UHGV virus genome: UHGV-0042155
Strand: one strand, 5' to 3'
Source of the DNA: a virus
DNA length: 29,839 bases
Notes under the pieces: generated by a model
Told to the model about the DNA's origin: nothing
Database searches by the model: none
What the model saw: only the letters and a program-made list of their open reading frames with translations
Shown here: positions 4,341 to 18,738 of the stretch, piece by piece
Numbering within the stretch: the stretch's first letter is position 1
Layout: each line of letters opens with the position of its first letter
Translations under genes and position numbers: made by a program

Positions 4341-5219
4341 ATGTTGTCAGCGATTGAGTTTTGCGAAGAAATTAGTCAAAAATCGGATTGGCTTGCTGGG
4401 CATATGGTCGAATGTGATTGGGACATATATGTTGATCTGCTCAGCGAAAGGTATCCCGTGATACAGAAGGAACTAAGCGAGATGCGAGATCAATTCTGGA
4501 ATTCTGATAAGGTAGGAACACGTGTGATTTTGTACAGTGATCCATCTCGTAAGGAGTATAAATATTGTACTGTTGACGGAGTGGAGCAATTAAAAGAAGA
4601 ATATACAGAAGTATATGATCCAGCTCAGGAATGCTGGAAACAGTTAAAATCACGTATTTTCAGGGAAACGTTTTGTCATCTTATTCAGGATGATTTTTTA
4701 ATTAATGATGTGTTTAAGTCACATCTATTTTTTGCCTCAATGTCTTATCAATGGGCAAAATCAGTTATGTCGGAGAATGAATGTGTCGCTATTAAAGCGT
4801 TCATTAAGTCAGCTGAATTATTTGATAGATGTATTGGTATGTCATGGTTTCATGTTTCTGTATGTACCCAAAAAAAATTATCACATGTTAGAGCTAAGGC
4901 CGGAAAACAAGGTGGGAACAGTAAATCAGAGGTATATCGAATAATTCAAGATAAGCTTGTTTATTTGATCAATAACTCCGTACCTGAAGGTGGGTGGAAA
5001 AGTAAAGCAGCTGCGGTGAATGACCTCATTGACCCCTTATGGAAATTTGTCGAAGAGTCAAATTTTGAAATTAATAATCAAAGTAAAAAATATCGGATAT
5101 CAACAATGAGCCCTGATGCATTGGCAGATACCATTATAAAAAACTGGTCAAGAAATATTGAGAGTATCAAATTGGCTTTCGATAATACGGTTACTAGAAA
5201 AAAGAAAACCAAAGGGTAA
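4341..5219 (+). CDS. hypothetical AT-rich orphan protein at the intA-alpA position (yfjH-equivalent locus)
   Basis: Long ORF convergent with intA; the track start at 4323 is TTG, the first ATG is 4341. Low GC relative to flanks. No recognisable motif. Confidence 0.55.
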   Translation: MLSAIEFCEEISQKSDWLAGHMVECDWDIYVDLLSERYPVIQKELSEMRDQFWNSDKVGTRVILYSDPSRKEYKYCTVDGVEQLKEEYTEVYDPAQECWKQLKSRIFRETFCHLIQDDFLINDVFKSHLFFASMSYQWAKSVMSENECVAIKAFIKSAELFDRCIGMSWFHVSVCTQKKLSHVRAKAGKQGGNSKSEVYRIIQDKLVYLINNSVPEGGWKSKAAAVNDLIDPLWKFVEESNFEINNQSKKYRISTMSPDALADTIIKNWSRNIESIKLAFDNTVTRKKKTKG

Positions 5220-6519: not shown

Positions 6520-6543
6520 GGGGAGTCTCCATGCGTTTAGGCC

Positions 6544-6641
6544 NNNNNNNNNNNNNNNNNNNNNNNNNNNNNNNNNNNNNNNNNNNNNNNNNNNNNNNNN
6601 NNNNNNNNNNNNNNNNNNNNNNNNNNNNNNNNNNNNNNNNN
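6544..6641. other. assembly gap (run of N)
   Basis: 98 consecutive N characters. Confidence 0.99.
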
Positions 6642-6714
6642 GGGCCTATCAATGGGCCTAAAAGGTTCGGATTTAATTAGTTCTCTTCGGACTTCGCGGG
6701 ACAAATTCAGGGCA

Positions 6715-6953: not shown

Positions 6954-8126
6954 CTACAGAGCTGCTGAAATGGCGGTTTTCCCGTCGTATTCAGCCAGGT
7001 ATTTACCGTAATTGCGGAACAGCATTTCCGGCCCTTTATGCCCCATCTGCCCGGCAAGCCAGAAAAGGTTTACGCCCTGGCTAATGTGTCTGGTGGCGAA
7101 TGTGTGGCGGGTCTGGTACGGGTTACGGTATCGAACGCCAGCTTTTTTGAGGGTTGGCACCCATGCTTTTTTTCGTATTGCGTCGGCGTTCGCCCAGGGC
7201 TCTCCCGTTTTAGGGTCGCTGAAAATAAACTCGCTTTTCATGAAAGTGAATTGTTTCTGCGCCTGCAGCGCGGCCAGCGCCTCGCTGTTTAATTCTACTT
7301 TACGGGTACCGGCTTTTGTTTTGGTGCCTTTCAGAACGCCAACAACACTCGCCGCCTGAACGTGAGCTGTTTTAGCGATATTGTCGAGATCAGGCCAGCG
7401 CAACGCACACAGCTCAGAGCTGCGTAAACCTGTATTGAATGCGAAACGGAACAGGTTTTCCCATTCCGGATAACTGCAGCTCTGGTAAATGGCGCTGATT
7501 TCCGCTGGTGTGAACGGATCAACTTCGTAATCGTCACTATTCGGGCTGCTGTCGATCACGTGGTACCGACTCGCGCTGACAAGGGTTACCGGGTTGATAG
7601 TCAGCAGGCCGTCTGTCACCGCTTCATCTATGGCGCTGCGCAGAAACGAGAGGTTATTCCTGATTGTTTTCAGCTTTGTTTTTCTGCTGGCGATCCAGTT
7701 TTTGAGGACCGCAGGGGTCAGTTCCGATACATGCATTTTGTGCAGCGCAGATAGCGCAGACAGGCACTTTTCATAACCGCCAATAGTGGACGGCGAAAGG
7801 TTGCGGTTCTGGCAGATTTTCAGATACTCGTCCAGGTAGGACTTAATATTTTTGGTTTTCTTCACTACCCCGAACAGCTCCAGTTTTTTGGAGGTGGGGA
7901 AGTATTTCGCATAATCGAATGTGCCGCCGGCGATCTGATTCTGTATCTCCCCCAGCAGGCGCTCGGCATACTTCACGCCGCGCGCGTTTGCTTCCATTCT
8001 GGAAAGGGGCTCCCGGCAGAGAACCCCCTTGTAGGTGAATGTGATCACCAGGGTGTCGCCAGTTTTATGCTGGCGAATGGTTACTCCTCTTGGGAGAGAT
8101 AATGATCCTTGTTCTTTCTTGCCCAC
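6954..8126 (-). CDS. lambdoid-phage tyrosine integrase
   Basis: 390-aa ORF with an N-terminal arm-binding-like region and C-terminal catalytic region (R...HTFATRH...Y); transcribed toward the att core, overlapped at its 5' end by xis. Confidence 0.9.
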   Translation of the reverse strand: MGKKEQGSLSLPRGVTIRQHKTGDTLVITFTYKGVLCREPLSRMEANARGVKYAERLLGEIQNQIAGGTFDYAKYFPTSKKLELFGVVKKTKNIKSYLDEYLKICQNRNLSPSTIGGYEKCLSALSALHKMHVSELTPAVLKNWIASRKTKLKTIRNNLSFLRSAIDEAVTDGLLTINPVTLVSASRYHVIDSSPNSDDYEVDPFTPAEISAIYQSCSYPEWENLFRFAFNTGLRSSELCALRWPDLDNIAKTAHVQAASVVGVLKGTKTKAGTRKVELNSEALAALQAQKQFTFMKSEFIFSDPKTGEPWANADAIRKKAWVPTLKKAGVRYRNPYQTRHTFATRHISQGVNLFWLAGQMGHKGPEMLFRNYGKYLAEYDGKTAISAAL

Positions 8127-8671: not shown

Positions 8672-9081
8672 TTCACCCCTGCTGGTTTGATGGCCTGCAG
8701 TGCATCAACCTCTTTAACGAATCGGTCATGCATCGCGTCCCATTTCTCACACCATTTCTCCATTTCTCGCTTGCGCGCCAGGATACGACGCAGACGGCGA
8801 ACACAACGCTGGTGGGCGGCCAGATACTCAGCCTTTGTTTCCCCGTCTCGCCATACCTCCATATCATCGCGATCAATACGCACTCGCGGGTGACGCTGTG
8901 GAAAACCTGAACGCTCAAAAGCCTCGGTGGTCATGAAGAAAGCCAGATAGCGGATCGCCGTATCGCGGGTGAAGCATTTTTTGACGCGGCCGTGACGGCG
9001 TGCCACGAACAACGGACCTGCCGGGGTATCATGTTGCTGTAATGCCAGGTCGATTGCGCTGGCGATGCGTTTATCAGTCAT
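8668..9081 (-). CDS. hypothetical early-left phage protein (137 aa)
   Basis: Internal start MTDKRIAS... at 9081 preferred over the track's 200-aa version, whose N-terminus is low-complexity and overlaps the upstream gene; ATGA overlap with that gene's stop. Confidence 0.6.
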   Translation of the reverse strand: MTDKRIASAIDLALQQHDTPAGPLFVARRHGRVKKCFTRDTAIRYLAFFMTTEAFERSGFPQRHPRVRIDRDDMEVWRDGETKAEYLAAHQRCVRRLRRILARKREMEKWCEKWDAMHDRFVKEVDALQAIKPAGVK

Positions 9082-9299
9082 TTTCTGTCCTTCAATTTTG
9101 AATAGCGTTCGTGGCTCATTACTTCCCAGCTCTGGCCGCCGTCGCGGGAAAGCAGGCGCCAGCGGAGATTCACACTCAGGCTCAGATAGCCAGTCTTGTG
9201 CATGCGGCGGGGGTGGATCCGCCCGGCGCGGTGCTGGCGCAGCACACGCACAGCCCTTTCGTGAACCCATTCAGGGATTCGGATCGCAGTAAGTGTCAT
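9078..9299 (-). CDS. hypothetical small basic protein (73 aa)
   Basis: ORF translationally coupled to its neighbours in the early-left operon. Confidence 0.5.
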   Translation of the reverse strand: MTLTAIRIPEWVHERAVRVLRQHRAGRIHPRRMHKTGYLSLSVNLRWRLLSRDGGQSWEVMSHERYSKLKDRK

Positions 9300-9535
9300 G
9301 AATGCTCCTGCGTGATGGCCGCTGTTTTCTTAGCATGTTCGACCAGCTCTGCCACAAGCTCATCAACCAGCAGCTTTCCGCTTTCAGTCAGGTATTCGCC
9401 ATGACCATTCACATCAACTGCATTCCGGTACAAATCGCGGATAGCTTTATCGCCTGCCACCGGGCCATGCTCACTTCGCGCCATTTTTTCAAACCGGCAC
9501 AGAAGCCCGTCGAATAAAATCTCGGTCAGCTCCAT
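9296..9535 (-). CDS. hypothetical protein (79 aa)
   Basis: Internal start MELTEILFDG... chosen; the start is uncertain. Confidence 0.45.
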   Translation of the reverse strand: MELTEILFDGLLCRFEKMARSEHGPVAGDKAIRDLYRNAVDVNGHGEYLTESGKLLVDELVAELVEHAKKTAAITQEHS

Positions 9536-9638
9536 GGTCGTTATTCCGCCTTTCGGAAGAGTAATAACAATGCAGGTTGTGCCTGTTTTACGTTGGTGGC
9601 GTAATAACGCTGCCTTTAAAATTCGGCGGCGGTAGGTT

Positions 9639-9842
9639 TCAATTACGTTGTTTTTCACGACGTTCAAACTCCGAATCCATCCACATTGAGACCTGAGCCG
9701 ACAAGTCAAGGCAGAGGCCAGACAGGGAAATTATTTGCTCGATATCCATATCAATAATATTGGAGTTGATTAACTCCATTAATTGATAAAGGTTATCTGC
9801 TGTATTTTTTGCGGTTTCTAGAGAACTGTCTCTACTGAGCAT
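9639..9842 (-). CDS. hypothetical small protein (67 aa)
   Basis: ORF in the early-left operon orientation. Confidence 0.45.
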   Translation of the reverse strand: MLSRDSSLETAKNTADNLYQLMELINSNIIDMDIEQIISLSGLCLDLSAQVSMWMDSEFERREKQRN

Positions 9843-9978: not shown

Positions 9979-10638
9979 TTAACGTGGTTGAGTAAATCGC
10001 TGTTGCATTCCCGCTATTTTTTTCATCAGGCCTGCATGTAGTAGTGGGTGAATCTCATCACATGTGGGCTTCCAGTCCTTAGCCTGTTGCATCTTGGCTG
10101 TGTGCCAGGCTAAGTGGGCTTCCTGTGTGGTGTTGAAAAGCCCAAGGTGTGAAATCTTTCCGTTTACGTTGATTCGTGCCCGAAACTTAGCGGACTGTTT
10201 ATGCCAGATAACACCCTGTGGGTATTTCCCTCGTAAACGGGCGCGATCACCTGTAAATAAGTTAAGTGCTGGGGGAACAAATACGCAGTATTCAGGACCA
10301 TATATCTTGTTACCATGGTGTAGCAGGTCCTTATCTAGCACATATCCATCGCGATAGTTTTCTTTCCAGAACGCCAGAAAGTTTGAGAATCGCAGCCACT
10401 CATCGGCAACAGTACATCCGGCGTAACTGTGCTCTAACTGTTCTGTGTGCGGTTTGTAGCAGCGAGATAACATGCCGCTCCAACGACGGTGAGCGCTGTG
10501 GTGGCACATTATTCCGTCGATGATAATAGTGCTGGGGAATTCTACGTCATAATGACCAACACCATACTCCAGGCTTTTTAAATGCCTACGCCGCGAAACT
10601 TTTGATTCAAGAAGACTATCTATTTCAGATTGGTTCAT
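9979..10638 (-). CDS. AP2-domain phage protein (HNH-endonuclease-associated family)
   Basis: GVIWHKQSAKFRARINVNGKISHLGLFNTTQEAHLAWH is a clear AP2 DNA-binding motif; Cys/His-rich N-terminal region. Confidence 0.75.
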   Translation of the reverse strand: MNQSEIDSLLESKVSRRRHLKSLEYGVGHYDVEFPSTIIIDGIMCHHSAHRRWSGMLSRCYKPHTEQLEHSYAGCTVADEWLRFSNFLAFWKENYRDGYVLDKDLLHHGNKIYGPEYCVFVPPALNLFTGDRARLRGKYPQGVIWHKQSAKFRARINVNGKISHLGLFNTTQEAHLAWHTAKMQQAKDWKPTCDEIHPLLHAGLMKKIAGMQQRFTQPR

Positions 10639-10707
10639 TTCAATCTCCTCTGAAATTTGGTTGCACGTATCCCCACCAGGGATGGTGTGATTTAAACTAC
10701 CTATTAA

Positions 10708-11127
10708 TTAATTTAATTTTATTTCGATGCTTTTCAGTAATTCATGTACCTTAATGGTATTATCGAAAATAAGTGATGCCATCAGGCAATCAGCGTCATC
10801 ACTGTCTTTTCCTGAAAAATATGATTCGTTATATACGTGAGCCAGTTCCCTGAGTTTTGCAGCGCTGACTGTGGCATAAAAAATATCATCGGCAATATCA
10901 TCTCTATTCCCGATGGGGGGGTTAACTGTCTTTGCAGTATTTGCTAACTCTTCGATGTATGCGTAAGCTGTTTCACGGGTTTTATCGAAAGAGCGAATGA
11001 GGCAGGCTAAGCCGCAATCAGTTTCCTCGTTCATTTCTTCGGTGTTTCTATAAATCATTTCCAGAAGAGTATTGCCTTCGGAAATCTGAGCGACGATATC
11101 ATGAAGCATGTCTAATGGAGTTTTCAT
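10708..11127 (-). CDS. acidic hypothetical protein (139 aa), second gene of an AT-rich two-gene operon
   Basis: About 19% Asp+Glu, net charge roughly -13. Its ATG immediately follows the TAA of the upstream gene (TAAATG). Markedly lower GC than the surrounding phage genes. Confidence 0.65.
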   Translation of the reverse strand: MKTPLDMLHDIVAQISEGNTLLEMIYRNTEEMNEETDCGLACLIRSFDKTRETAYAYIEELANTAKTVNPPIGNRDDIADDIFYATVSAAKLRELAHVYNESYFSGKDSDDADCLMASLIFDNTIKVHELLKSIEIKLN

Positions 11128-11340
11128 TTATTCATTCTCCGGCCAATCATAACCAAGTTCATGGTTTAGAACAGAAAGATTATCCCTTAACTGATTGATA
11201 CAAATTTTAATGAGTGCCGCTGGTTTATATGCAACATCTGGATCTGATTCTGCGTACTCAAGCGCATTGATTACACGATCAATATCCATCGCAATTTTGT
11301 GGACAGTTCCGTTCTCGGAAAGCATTTTCTCTACATTCAT
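11128..11340 (-). CDS. acidic hypothetical protein (70 aa), first gene of the pL transcript
   Basis: First ATG (11340) has a GGAG Shine-Dalgarno; the track's TTG start at 11400 would run through the promoter and operator. Acidic and AT-rich. Confidence 0.6.
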   Translation of the reverse strand: MNVEKMLSENGTVHKIAMDIDRVINALEYAESDPDVAYKPAALIKICINQLRDNLSVLNHELGYDWPENE

Positions 11341-11371
11341 TTCATAGGCTCCGTTGTCTGCTGATGAAGTG

Positions 11372-11400
11372 AATTTAGCAAAATGGTAAAAGCCATGCAA
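11372..11400 (-). promoter_or_regulatory. putative pL promoter with overlapping repressor operator
   Basis: Minus strand reads TTGCAT-N17-TAAATT. The 17-mer at 11374-11390 (tttagcaaaatggtaaa) matches the OR site at 12238-12254 at 15 of 17 positions with both half-sites identical. Confidence 0.5.
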
Positions 11401-11483
11401 ATGATAAATGCTAAATTATTTACTTTTTCTTTTATGTATTTGATAAATAATATAATTATTTATTATTATTCTTCGGTGGGCAT

Positions 11484-11511
11484 AAAAAAACCCACCATCA
11501 GGTCGGGTGGG
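11484..11511 (-). terminator. rho-independent terminator downstream of cI
   Basis: Stem cccacc (11491-11496) / ggtggg (11506-11511) followed on the minus strand by a T7 run (plus-strand A-run 11484-11490). Confidence 0.6.
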
Positions 11512-11529
11512 GGGGGGTAAAGATGGGGG

Positions 11530-12219
11530 TTACAGGGCGGGCATTTCATCATTGTCAACATAACGCGTATGCTTAACAATAGCTGAAACAAAATGCATTT
11601 TCTCGATGCTATCAGGACTTAAGGTGATGGGCCTGTGATCACTGTTTACACTTGAGAATTGATAATCGCCATCGCGAGTTTTACTCATGATTTTTATCAT
11701 GTTATGCCCATCTTTTGTTCGCACAAAAACCTCATCACCTGTATGAACTTGGGTGTTTGGCTCTATGACGACATATTCTCCAGACTGTATGCGTGGCCAC
11801 ATGCTGTCTCCCTTCACTTTCAGCCCATAGGCATCCCTATCCGCGCTGTATATTTGTAGCCATCCAGCGTGGATCTCTAGCATATCGATCATTCCGTCAA
11901 TCCCAAGAATCGCTTCCCCTACAACTGGTACAGCTCCCGGACGGACTGATCCGACATACTCCAACTCGCTTTTAATACTGCCAGGAGCATTGTGTGGACT
12001 ATCCAGCCACCCAAACGGACGATCCAAGGCCTGTTCAATCTTTCTGGCCATTTTGTCCCCTATGTTTCGATGGCTATTGCCCCCAAGCAACTGGCTCAAC
12101 TGGGCAGGGCTTATCCCGCACAATTCTGCGAAAGCTGCTTTTGTCGTATGTCTGTCGCGCTTCAGGAACTCAACAATGAGCTGCTCAAGGTTTGATTTGC
12201 GTATGCTTTTTATGTCCAT
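11530..12219 (-). CDS. CI-like repressor (HTH plus S24 LexA-type peptidase domain)
   Basis: N-terminal HTH (AAFAELCGISPAQLSQLL) and C-terminal S24 motifs (GDSMWP, Lys in NMIKIM); divergent from the cro-like gene across an operator region. Confidence 0.9.
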   Translation of the reverse strand: MDIKSIRKSNLEQLIVEFLKRDRHTTKAAFAELCGISPAQLSQLLGGNSHRNIGDKMARKIEQALDRPFGWLDSPHNAPGSIKSELEYVGSVRPGAVPVVGEAILGIDGMIDMLEIHAGWLQIYSADRDAYGLKVKGDSMWPRIQSGEYVVIEPNTQVHTGDEVFVRTKDGHNMIKIMSKTRDGDYQFSSVNSDHRPITLSPDSIEKMHFVSAIVKHTRYVDNDEMPAL

Positions 12220-12237
12220 GTCAAAATAATCTCATTA

Positions 12238-12305
12238 TTTAGCAATGTGGTAAATACACAAACTGCTAAATGATTATTGCATTTAATTTAGCAAAAAGCT
12301 AAAGT
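12238..12305. promoter_or_regulatory. OR-like operator/promoter region (pR, possible pRM)
   Basis: 17-bp sites tttagcaatgtggtaaa (12238-12254) and the perfect palindrome tttagcaaaaagctaaa (12287-12303), with further TGCTAAA half-sites between them; candidate pR is TTGCAT (12277-12282)-N17-TAAAGT (12300-12305). Confidence 0.55.
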
Positions 12306-12330: not shown

Positions 12331-12558
12331 ATGAACAACCAATTACTTGCTTGGCGTAAGTGCTCAACAAAAGAGCAGTGGGCAGATCTTGCTAAAAAAT
12401 CAGGCACATCTCCGGGATACCTGAATCTCATTGCTTATGGTCATCGCAATGCTTCCCCCAGACTGGCATTGGCGATCGAGAGCGCATCAAAGTCATTCGT
12501 GAATAAGCCAGTTATTACAAAAGAACAGTTGGTTTTCAAGAGCGGTTCTGAGGTGTGA
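12331..12558 (+). CDS. Cro-like HTH regulator
   Basis: First ATG with an AGGAG Shine-Dalgarno (track start 12313 is TTG); small protein divergent from cI. Confidence 0.7.
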   Translation: MNNQLLAWRKCSTKEQWADLAKKSGTSPGYLNLIAYGHRNASPRLALAIESASKSFVNKPVITKEQLVFKSGSEV

Positions 12559-17991: not shown

Positions 17992-18068
17992 GGCCCTTTA
18001 GCTCAGTTGGTTAGAGCGTGCGACTCATAATCGCCCGGTCGCTGGTTCAAGTCCAGCAAGGGCCACCA
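17992..18068 (+). tRNA. tRNA with CAU anticodon (Ile2/lysidine-type or Met)
   Basis: Cloverleaf read by hand: acceptor ggccctt/aagggcc, D arm gctc...gagc, anticodon loop ctCATaa, T arm gctgg-ttcaagt-ccagc, encoded CCA; resembles enterobacterial tRNA-Ile2. Confidence 0.85.
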
Positions 18069-18070
18069 GA

Positions 18071-18144
18071 CCGCCACTAGCTCATCGGGAAGAGCGGCAA
18101 CCCAGGTGTTGTGGTACGGGGTTCGAGGCTCCGGTGGCGGACCA
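18071..18144 (+). tRNA. tRNA-like gene with non-canonical 6-nt anticodon loop (possible pseudogene)
   Basis: Good acceptor (ccgccac/gtggcgg), D arm and T arm and an encoded CCA, but the best anticodon fold is gcaac-ccaggt-gttgt with a 6-nt loop. Confidence 0.5.
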
Positions 18145-18146
18145 CT

Positions 18147-18222
<76 letters not shown>

Positions 18223-18225
18223 TAT

Positions 18226-18300
<75 letters not shown>

Positions 18301-18680
18301 GTTTAAGCTTTTCGGTCTGCGATGATGGGTTCCCCGGAGTGACTGGAAAGCGACCTGGTTTTGAATGGGCGCTGCTTTTTGCAAAATTGCTGTGTGAAAA
18401 TACTGACCTTTGGGTTCAGCGCTCATCCAAAAGCATCACGTGAATTCACCAACGCTCATGTACTCTCCAGGAAACAATAAGTGATTCTGAAAAGTTCCGG
18501 TTAGATATTGCCCCGGTCACCGGATGATTTTATCTTTTGGTTCGTGGTGAATCCCCCTATGCGGCGGGGCGTCCAGTCAAACTTTTTTGTCCAGGTTTGT
18601 TTGCGCGGAACTAGTCGGCTGGGGCTGTTCCACCGGGAGGCACCCGGCGCCACCTCCTTGACGGTATTGTTATTTTTCAT

Positions 18681-18707
18681 GCCTGTTCGTCCGAGCAGGC
18701 TTTTTTT
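18681..18707 (+). terminator. strong rho-independent terminator
   Basis: 8-bp stem (18681-18688 with 18693-18700) followed by TTTTTTT at 18701-18707. Confidence 0.6.
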
Positions 18708-18738
18708 GCCCGCATTATCTTCATTGAAAACTGGCAAC

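Follow-up and report, generated by a model that had tools for sequence, protein, structure and literature searches.

Two small acidic proteins, very probably the first CI-gated leftward products of a lambdoid prophage, and their tentative role as an early effector pair

Our analysis of a stretch of viral DNA of 29,839 nucleotides (virus genome UHGV-0042155; the whole stretch is referred to here as the window) revealed a pair of abutting genes, A and B, that are real genes under purifying selection and whose products, judged from the arrangement of the sequence around them, are very probably the first leftward products of a lambdoid prophage to be released from CI repression. The explanation that we favour, tentatively and at a little short of an even chance, is that A and B are an immediate-early protein-binding pair that would neutralize a conserved target in the service of host takeover or anti-defence, and would do so by means other than the mimicry of DNA.

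The window was 99.8 % identical to the chromosome of Escherichia coli MS 115-1 (NZ_CP146665) and 99.6 % identical to strain EC2001, and RefSeq annotates within it a lambdoid prophage, the immunity region of which was found in only 3 of 5,426 complete E. coli genomes. On the minus strand, RefSeq places int at 6954–8126 and six small genes between int and the gene for a 219-aa HNH/AP2-like protein (9979–10638; phrog_953 at 5.9e-80, with a weak Pfam AP2 match). The cI-type repressor (229 aa; 11530..12219, minus strand) matched Pfam Peptidase_S24 (1.8e-17) and HTH_3 (3.4e-06) and also phrog_4, a transcriptional repressor, and carries the RefSeq name ‘S24 family peptidase’. On the plus strand, a cro-like gene driven by pR (12331–12558) is followed in the RefSeq annotation by a DUF4222 gene, replication genes, a Q-type antiterminator, three tRNAs, and lysis and head genes. 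The prophage has this Q-type antiterminator and is without N; within the window, no cII-like gene was recognizable rightward of cro, and no exo/bet/gam module was recognizable in the early-left operon.

Other features of the window were recorded alongside this gene order. Six Chi sites (GCTGGTGG; positions 8808, 14899, 16089, 16226, 20635 and 24951) were counted against 0.75 expected, five of them on the plus strand. The 219-aa HNH/AP2-like gene lies directly downstream of B, is present in only some of the related prophages (L008–L010) and looks like a homing-endonuclease-type insertion into the early-left operon. The same operon holds a gene for a 73-aa ParE-like toxin domain protein (9078–9299, minus strand; PF24732, 1.4e-20), which recurs in related prophages; it is preceded by an ORF (9296–9667) that overlaps its start and could be its antitoxin. 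A third small, acidic, low-GC early-left gene was also seen (67 aa; 9639–9842, minus strand; pI 4.27, GC 0.39), which matches phrog_8959, a family of unknown function. 3′ of the Q-type antiterminator, a cluster of three tRNAs (17992–18297, plus strand; Ile, Thr and Gly in RefSeq) is accompanied by an Rfam match to the sRNA STnc100 (18519–18711, plus strand; 71.7 bits). Comparison of the window with the complete genome of MS 115-1 gave a net difference of 72 bp near 6543–6642 (about 98 nt versus about 26 nt). The site lies between two integrative elements in tandem, with a P4-type island (intA, AlpA, YfjI and inovirus Gp2-like) on one side and the integrase of the prophage on the other.

Gene A (11128..11340, minus strand) is contained in a 90-aa ORF with a TTG start (11128–11400), from which the ATG at 11340 yields a protein of 70 aa, the length given in RefSeq for E. 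coli MS 115-1 and found in nearly all homologues; a Shine–Dalgarno sequence, GGAG (11352–11349), lies 8 nt 5′ of this ATG. The stop codon of A, TAA (11130–11128), abuts the ATG of gene B (11127), which encodes 139 aa (10708..11127, minus strand). RefSeq lists the products of both genes as ‘hypothetical proteins’. An earlier, sequence-only reading of this DNA had described a translationally coupled pair of 70 and 139 aa with about 19 % Asp+Glu each and a much lower GC content than the neighbouring genes, and the abutting ORFs and our measurements of composition agree with it: A has 18.6 % D+E, a pI of 4.56, a net charge of −7 and a GC content of 0.380, and B has 18.7 % D+E, a pI of 4.47, a net charge of −13 and a GC content of 0.393. 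By comparison, the GC content is 0.467 in cI and also in the HNH-like gene downstream, 0.520 in int, and 0.499 in the prophage portion of the window. However, 4 of the 28 tabulated prophage proteins have at least 17.9 % D+E and a pI below 4.7, and because two others are as acidic as A and B, acidity alone is weak evidence. The dN/dS ratio was approximately 0.08 for A, with dS saturated, and 0.09–0.44 for B.

A has a conserved C-terminal tail, G-x-D-W-P-E-N-K, and B is made up of an N-module (approximately residues 1–65) and a C1-module (approximately residues 76–139), with a Pro-rich, low-confidence linker between them. AlphaFold2 modelled A as a single helical hairpin with moderate confidence (pLDDT 77), the conserved tail being disordered, and B as two helical hairpins joined by the linker, again with moderate confidence (pLDDT 78, pTM 0.42). 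A and B are small acidic proteins, predicted by these models to be all-alpha and built of helical hairpins.

The promoter proposed for the pair, pL (11372..11400, minus strand), comprises a −35 hexamer TTGCAT (11400–11395), the four bases GGCT, the operator TTTACCATTTTGCTAAA (11390–11374) and a −10 hexamer TAAATT (11377–11372). Its geometry is identical to that of pR (12277..12305, plus strand), where TTGCAT (12277–12282) is followed by TTAA, the operator TTTAGCAAAAAGCTAAA (12287–12303), which is a perfect palindrome, and the −10 hexamer TAAAGT; in both, four bases separate the −35 hexamer from a 17-bp operator, the last four bases of which open the −10 hexamer. A second full OR operator, TTTAGCAATGTGGTAAA (12238..12254), was read from the sequence by pattern search, and the 17-mer at pL matches each OR site at 15 of 17 positions. 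The previously suggested TTGCAT-N17-TAAATT promoter, overlapped by a 17-bp OR-like site, is upheld by the sequence. The pattern TTTASC-N5-GSTAAA occurs three times in 29.8 kb (11374, 12238 and 12287), always within the immunity region, against an expectation of 0.22, and none of 100 shuffles reached this count; the TTGCAT-N4-operator composite is found at pL and at pR and nowhere else in the window (0.00 expected). In the diverged relative L003, the pL operator and −10 hexamer are perfectly conserved and the flanking bases differ. The pL hexamers are weak (3/6 and 4/6, or 7/12 together), which is why a generic promoter scan missed them. OL was seen to contain one full 17-bp site (11374–11390) and a half-site motif in common with OR (11406–11420 versus 12261–12275).

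Upstream of the −35 hexamer lies an AT-rich, UP-element-like spacer (11402..11480, minus strand) with an operator half-site, GCTAAA (11410–11415), and a palindrome, AAATAATATAATTATTT (11445–11461); the UP-like tract, the half-site and the palindrome are putative functional sites. Perfect palindromes of the class AAATAAT-N3-ATTATTT occur exactly twice in the window (0.01 expected), one copy upstream of pL (11445–11461) and the other between the start of cI and OR (12224–12240), and they are conserved in L008 and absent from the diverged L003. They may serve a further regulator, either Cro or a host factor, or may reflect the AT-richness of the sequence. The best sigma70-like match of the region, TTGATA-18-TATTAT (10/12; 11440–11469, plus strand), would read rightward into cI from its 3′ end, and could give rise to an antisense transcript or could be a chance occurrence in AT-rich DNA.

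Between cI and pL is a terminator-like hairpin (11484..11511, minus strand) of CCCACC, a 9-nt loop and GGTGGG, followed by seven T residues, which a generic terminator scan missed because its loop exceeds 8 nt. RNAfold preferred an overlapping hairpin at this position (−14.5 kcal/mol, z = −2.5), and an Rfam scan of 10600–11550 detected no RNA family. An 8-bp stem and T-run are retained after cI in L003 and L008, with a different loop, and an analogous hairpin and T-run lie 3′ of cI in L004 and L005. Heteroimmune relatives share the order of cI, hairpin with T-run, operator-flanked promoter and first gene, each with operators of its own; in L005, for example, ATCAAGTTTAACTTGA occurs twice at the leftward promoter and related sites are found in OR. 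It is because their promoter has the geometry of pR and the same operator, and stands after cI and the hairpin, that A and B are very probably the first of the CI-gated products. The sequence-only reading had proposed them as the earliest repressor-gated leftward genes, which the order of cI, hairpin, pL/OL, A and B supports well. The regulatory design of the region is that of a classic lambdoid phage.

Searches for known families left both proteins as orphans. Pfam and NCBIfam scans of A and B gave noise only, and A had no PHROG match. B, on the other hand, matched phrog_27579 from end to end (1.3e-73) and phrog_6882 over residues 1–63 (5.3e-21), neither of which carries a functional annotation. 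The former statement that the proteins belong to no nameable family therefore stands for A but not for B, whose family, although of unknown function, is already catalogued; the statement that neither resembles N holds for both, as they are acidic and have no Arg-rich stretch in their sequences. A Pfam scan of 60 relatives (32 B-family and 28 A-family proteins, E ≤ 1) gave no match to Ocr, ArdA, Lar or Gam, Lar_restr_allev (PF14354) was not matched by A or B in Pfam, and neither protein showed similarity to the Kil, DicB or CbtA families in Pfam, PHROG or NCBIfam. The PADLOC-DB v2 scan returned Lit for B at the level of noise (E = 0.019, 12 bits) and nothing for A. Sequence-profile searches of the PDB with A and B gave nothing below E = 0.5, and Foldseek comparison of both models with the PDB, and of B with BFVD, returned only generic helical hairpins or bundles, all at E ≥ 0.3; by sequence and by fold, no similarity to Ocr, ArdA, Ral or Gam was seen. 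Neither a transmembrane nor an enzymatic domain was found in A or B, and no HTH in B, by Pfam or in the models. The searches made gave no homology link from A or B to any target or defence system, and a literature search on the proteins (RefSeq accessions, the prophages of the strain and early-operon anti-defence) found nothing.

The homologues of A and B, all named ‘hypothetical’, are confined to the Enterobacteriaceae (Enterobacter, Citrobacter, Klebsiella, Salmonella, Trabulsiella, Raoultella and Edwardsiella). The B family is tiny, amounting to 69 clusters in an exhaustive HMM search of 1.84 billion representatives, and C1 patterns were matched in 3 of 185,579 species genomes. Some candidate relationships were tried and rejected. 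A and B do not appear to be paralogues (hhalign of A against B gave nothing), B does not appear to be an internal duplication (N-module versus C-module, E = 0.023 over 16 columns, not significant), and comparison of the S family, described below, with A, N and C1 found no relationship. The possibility that these are plasmid leading-region anti-defence genes was likewise set aside, as the PLSDB matches of B were mostly non-mobilizable, phage-sized records of 40–43 kb; the others were three 150-kb Klebsiella plasmids and one 439-kb E. coli plasmid, and A had no match in PLSDB.

In every locus examined, B-family genes occupied slots 1–3 downstream of a cI-type repressor and on the same strand. 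The repressors at these loci are of at least seven types that are only 20–25 % identical, in both domains, and the function of the cassette is therefore not tied to immunity specificity. Such independence speaks against both an antirepressor of the cognate CI and a regulator tied to a particular operator, and a CI-specific antirepressor was rejected as the main reading on these grounds. Within the cassette, the N-module was joined to C1 in the window, L004 and L005, and to an unrelated C2 in L003 and phage Fraca, and it stood alone in phi467, L019 and L027. Fusions of the N-module to an XRE HTH domain, single or double, were seen in P0042, P0141, P0142, P0163, P0169, P0172 and a 148-aa protein of L004; they cover at least six clusters and include the gene at the head of the pL operon in L004, L014 and L015. 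The HTH part of the fusions matched Pfam HTH_3 at up to 1e-18, the HMM profile of the N-module matched the fusion proteins at 1e-16 to 1e-29, and hhalign of the N-module against the 148-aa product of the first pL gene of L004 gave a probability of 95 % (E = 2e-8). The best PHROG match of the fused HTH was phrog_4836, labelled ‘CII-like regulator’. In L004, an N-HTH and an N-C1 protein are encoded in one operon. C1 was also found alone or after a further module, X, which in turn also precedes N.

A small hairpin gene usually lies directly upstream of the N-module gene, with stop and start codons that abut or overlap. This gene is A in the window, L003, L008–L010 and L018–L021, and a member of the unrelated S family (phrog_4587) in L004, phi467, Fraca and EKP1; in L015, the second gene encodes a protein in which S, too, is joined to an HTH of the phrog_4836 type. 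The exceptions are L005–L007, where B directly follows cI without A, and L022–L026, in which the gene after A is an unrelated one of 72 aa. The C-module has been swapped between prophages with near-identical cI (the window versus L003), and B alleles are commonly frameshifted or truncated, as in P0040, which occurs in more than 50 index blocks. A Lar/Ral-type gene lies several genes downstream in the pL operon of related prophages. What is new here is modest and consists of the module map and the HTH fusions; the B family itself was already in PHROG.

Some of the related loci have peculiarities of their own. In L022–L026, the third gene of the pL operon (approximately 4493–4879) encodes a stand-alone 128-aa Peptidase_S24 domain protein, which is UmuD-like or like the C-terminal domain of a repressor. 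L001 (OM284015.1, ‘Elizabethkingia phage EKP1’; 5055–5863) has an Enterobacteriaceae-type lambdoid immunity region with two S-family genes and a B homologue of 73 % amino acid identity that is split into two CDS at the module boundary; the Flavobacteriia host stated for this record looks doubtful.

According to our favoured explanation, induction or infection would lead to A and B being made first, in a roughly fixed proportion. The two would act together as a protein-binding pair, with A probably docking on the N-module of B, and the pair would bind a conserved protein target and neutralize it by protein–protein contact, in an organization like that of acr–aca cassettes in which the HTH is optional. 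The dN/dS values of both genes are taken as support for a conserved target. A role in takeover or anti-defence is favoured because the cassette is accessory, independent of immunity type, without an HTH in the window and very probably made first; we regard it as accessory because of its low GC content, its swapped C-module, its frequently broken alleles and the small size of the family. The sharing of the N-module with XRE/‘CII-like’ HTH proteins points to a protein–protein interaction module, and leaves a regulatory role open. A complex of A and B is suggested by the adjacency of their genes, and against a fixed pair count the unrelated 72-aa gene that comes after A in L022–L026 and the occurrence of B without A in L005–L007. 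The weak pL hexamers and the single full operator of OL also count against the favoured explanation, and both the purifying selection and the HTH fusions would fit a regulatory role equally well. A broader proposal, which we regard as rather doubtful, is that the cassettes next to pL in these lambdoid phages of Enterobacteriaceae make up a hitherto unrecognized, combinatorial immediate-early family for counter-defence or takeover. Its proteins would be assembled from the hairpin modules A, S, X, N, C1 and C2, to which an XRE HTH may or may not be added; N would be the common docking unit, the variable partners would set the target and the HTH would be an Aca-like autoregulator.

The main rival explanation is that of a regulatory adaptor, in which B would be an HTH-less member of the pL-proximal XRE/‘CII-like’ regulators, forming homo- or hetero-oligomers through its N-module with A as a co-factor. 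Such an adaptor might tune early transcription or the choice between lysis and lysogeny, in an Id-like or CIII-like manner, or it might interfere with the N-module–HTH regulators of relatives that reside in the same cell or superinfect it. It ranks as the main rival because the HTH fusions and the absence of a recognizable cII right of cro suggest such a role, and we consider it fairly unlikely rather than improbable. In particular, the N-module is fused to an XRE HTH in multiple clusters and at the head of three pL operons, the fused HTH resembles phrog_4836 and is shared with an S-module protein, L004 encodes both forms of N-module protein in one operon, and purifying selection on A and B is strong. 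However, the window phage is without an N-module–HTH partner and so would offer B no regulator of its own phage to act on; the presence of the cassette does not depend on the type of repressor; truncation of B is frequent, which is unexpected for a core component of a switch; and the label ‘CII-like regulator’ is an annotation, not a tested function.

The remaining alternatives are less probable and differ in what the early products would act upon. Lambda Kil, Rac KilR and DicB arrest the cell early after derepression, and A, B or both could similarly bind an essential host machine of division, replication or transcription and bring about an early arrest. Their small size, pL-proximal position and repressor gating fit such a host shutoff, their high conservation suggests a conserved host target, and the many truncated B alleles of resident prophages are what a cost of leaky expression would predict; set against the lack of similarity to the known Kil, DicB and CbtA families, this makes for an improbable alternative. 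We judged more improbable still an anti-restriction role by DNA mimicry in the sense of Ocr and ArdA, in which acidic surfaces would imitate the DNA backbone and titrate type I restriction–modification, BREX or similar systems. The idea had been raised in the sequence-only reading, and what survives of it is the moderate acidity (net charges of −7 and −13, pI of about 4.5) and the place of A and B as the earliest genes by predicted promoter, Ocr being among the earliest expressed genes of T7. The charge density of classic DNA mimics appears to be clearly higher (Ocr has roughly 30 % D+E), and the 19 % of A and B is common to other proteins of this prophage; moreover, neither the queries nor the 60 family members matched Ocr, ArdA, Lar or Gam in Pfam, the moderate-confidence models found no fold match in the PDB or BFVD below E = 0.3, the N-module is shared with HTH regulators, and related prophages already have their Lar/Ral-type gene further down the operon. 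Least probable of all, to the point of being highly improbable, is a prophage-expressed exclusion or defence module of the rexAB or sieB kind that protects the lysogen. Lambda carries rexAB next to cI, and A and B share both this location and a low, ‘moron-like’ GC content, yet the earlier suggestion of an exclusion module conflicts with the terminator-like hairpin that separates them from cI and with the CI operator that lies across the −10 hexamer of their promoter. Furthermore, PADLOC gave no match beyond the noise-level Lit, and a transmembrane or enzymatic domain is lacking in both proteins.

In summary, the present state of the evidence is a clean annotation of an immunity region together with two orphan families, of which that of B was already listed in PHROG without a function. 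To our knowledge, few anti-defence or takeover factors have been described for enteric temperate phages outside lambda and P22, and should the pair prove to act on the host or on a defence system, it would constitute a compact, repressor-gated early effector cassette for such phages. If it is regulatory instead, it would reveal how the early decision is organized in lambdoid phages that have neither N nor cII. The module map provides a direct experimental handle, as the N-module is common to HTH regulators and HTH-less proteins.

The region was also compared with known systems. As at lambda pL/OL, the promoter reads away from cI, an operator of the OR class overlaps its −10 hexamer and spacer, and it lies beyond the end of the cI transcription unit and has under its control an early-left operon that runs towards int. 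It differs in having one full 17-bp operator and a half-site where lambda has three operators, in being without an N gene or a recognizable nut site, and in that its first genes are two acidic orphans in an operon without a recognizable exo/bet/gam module. With respect to lambda CII and CIII, the HTH found in relatives of B has phrog_4836 as its best match, and a small HTH-less pL protein that shares a segment with a regulator recalls the action of CIII on the CII pathway; this analogy is architectural only, as B is without an HTH and matches neither CII nor CIII, and what it shares with the N-module–HTH regulators is the N-terminal helical-hairpin module, not the HTH. T7 Ocr and ArdA resemble A and B in being acidic, helical and first expressed (here by predicted promoter), but there is no similarity in sequence or fold, the charge density of A and B appears to be much lower, and their modular hairpins are shared with HTH regulators. 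The acr–aca cassettes differ from that of the window in that the latter is without an HTH and is controlled by the CI operator of the phage. The likeness to them, drawn here from the pattern of the cassette across relatives rather than from any sequence relation to Acr or Aca, would lie in small, often acidic orphans whose cassettes vary in content but keep their place from one related phage to the next, behind a strong early promoter and sometimes accompanied by, or fused to, an HTH.
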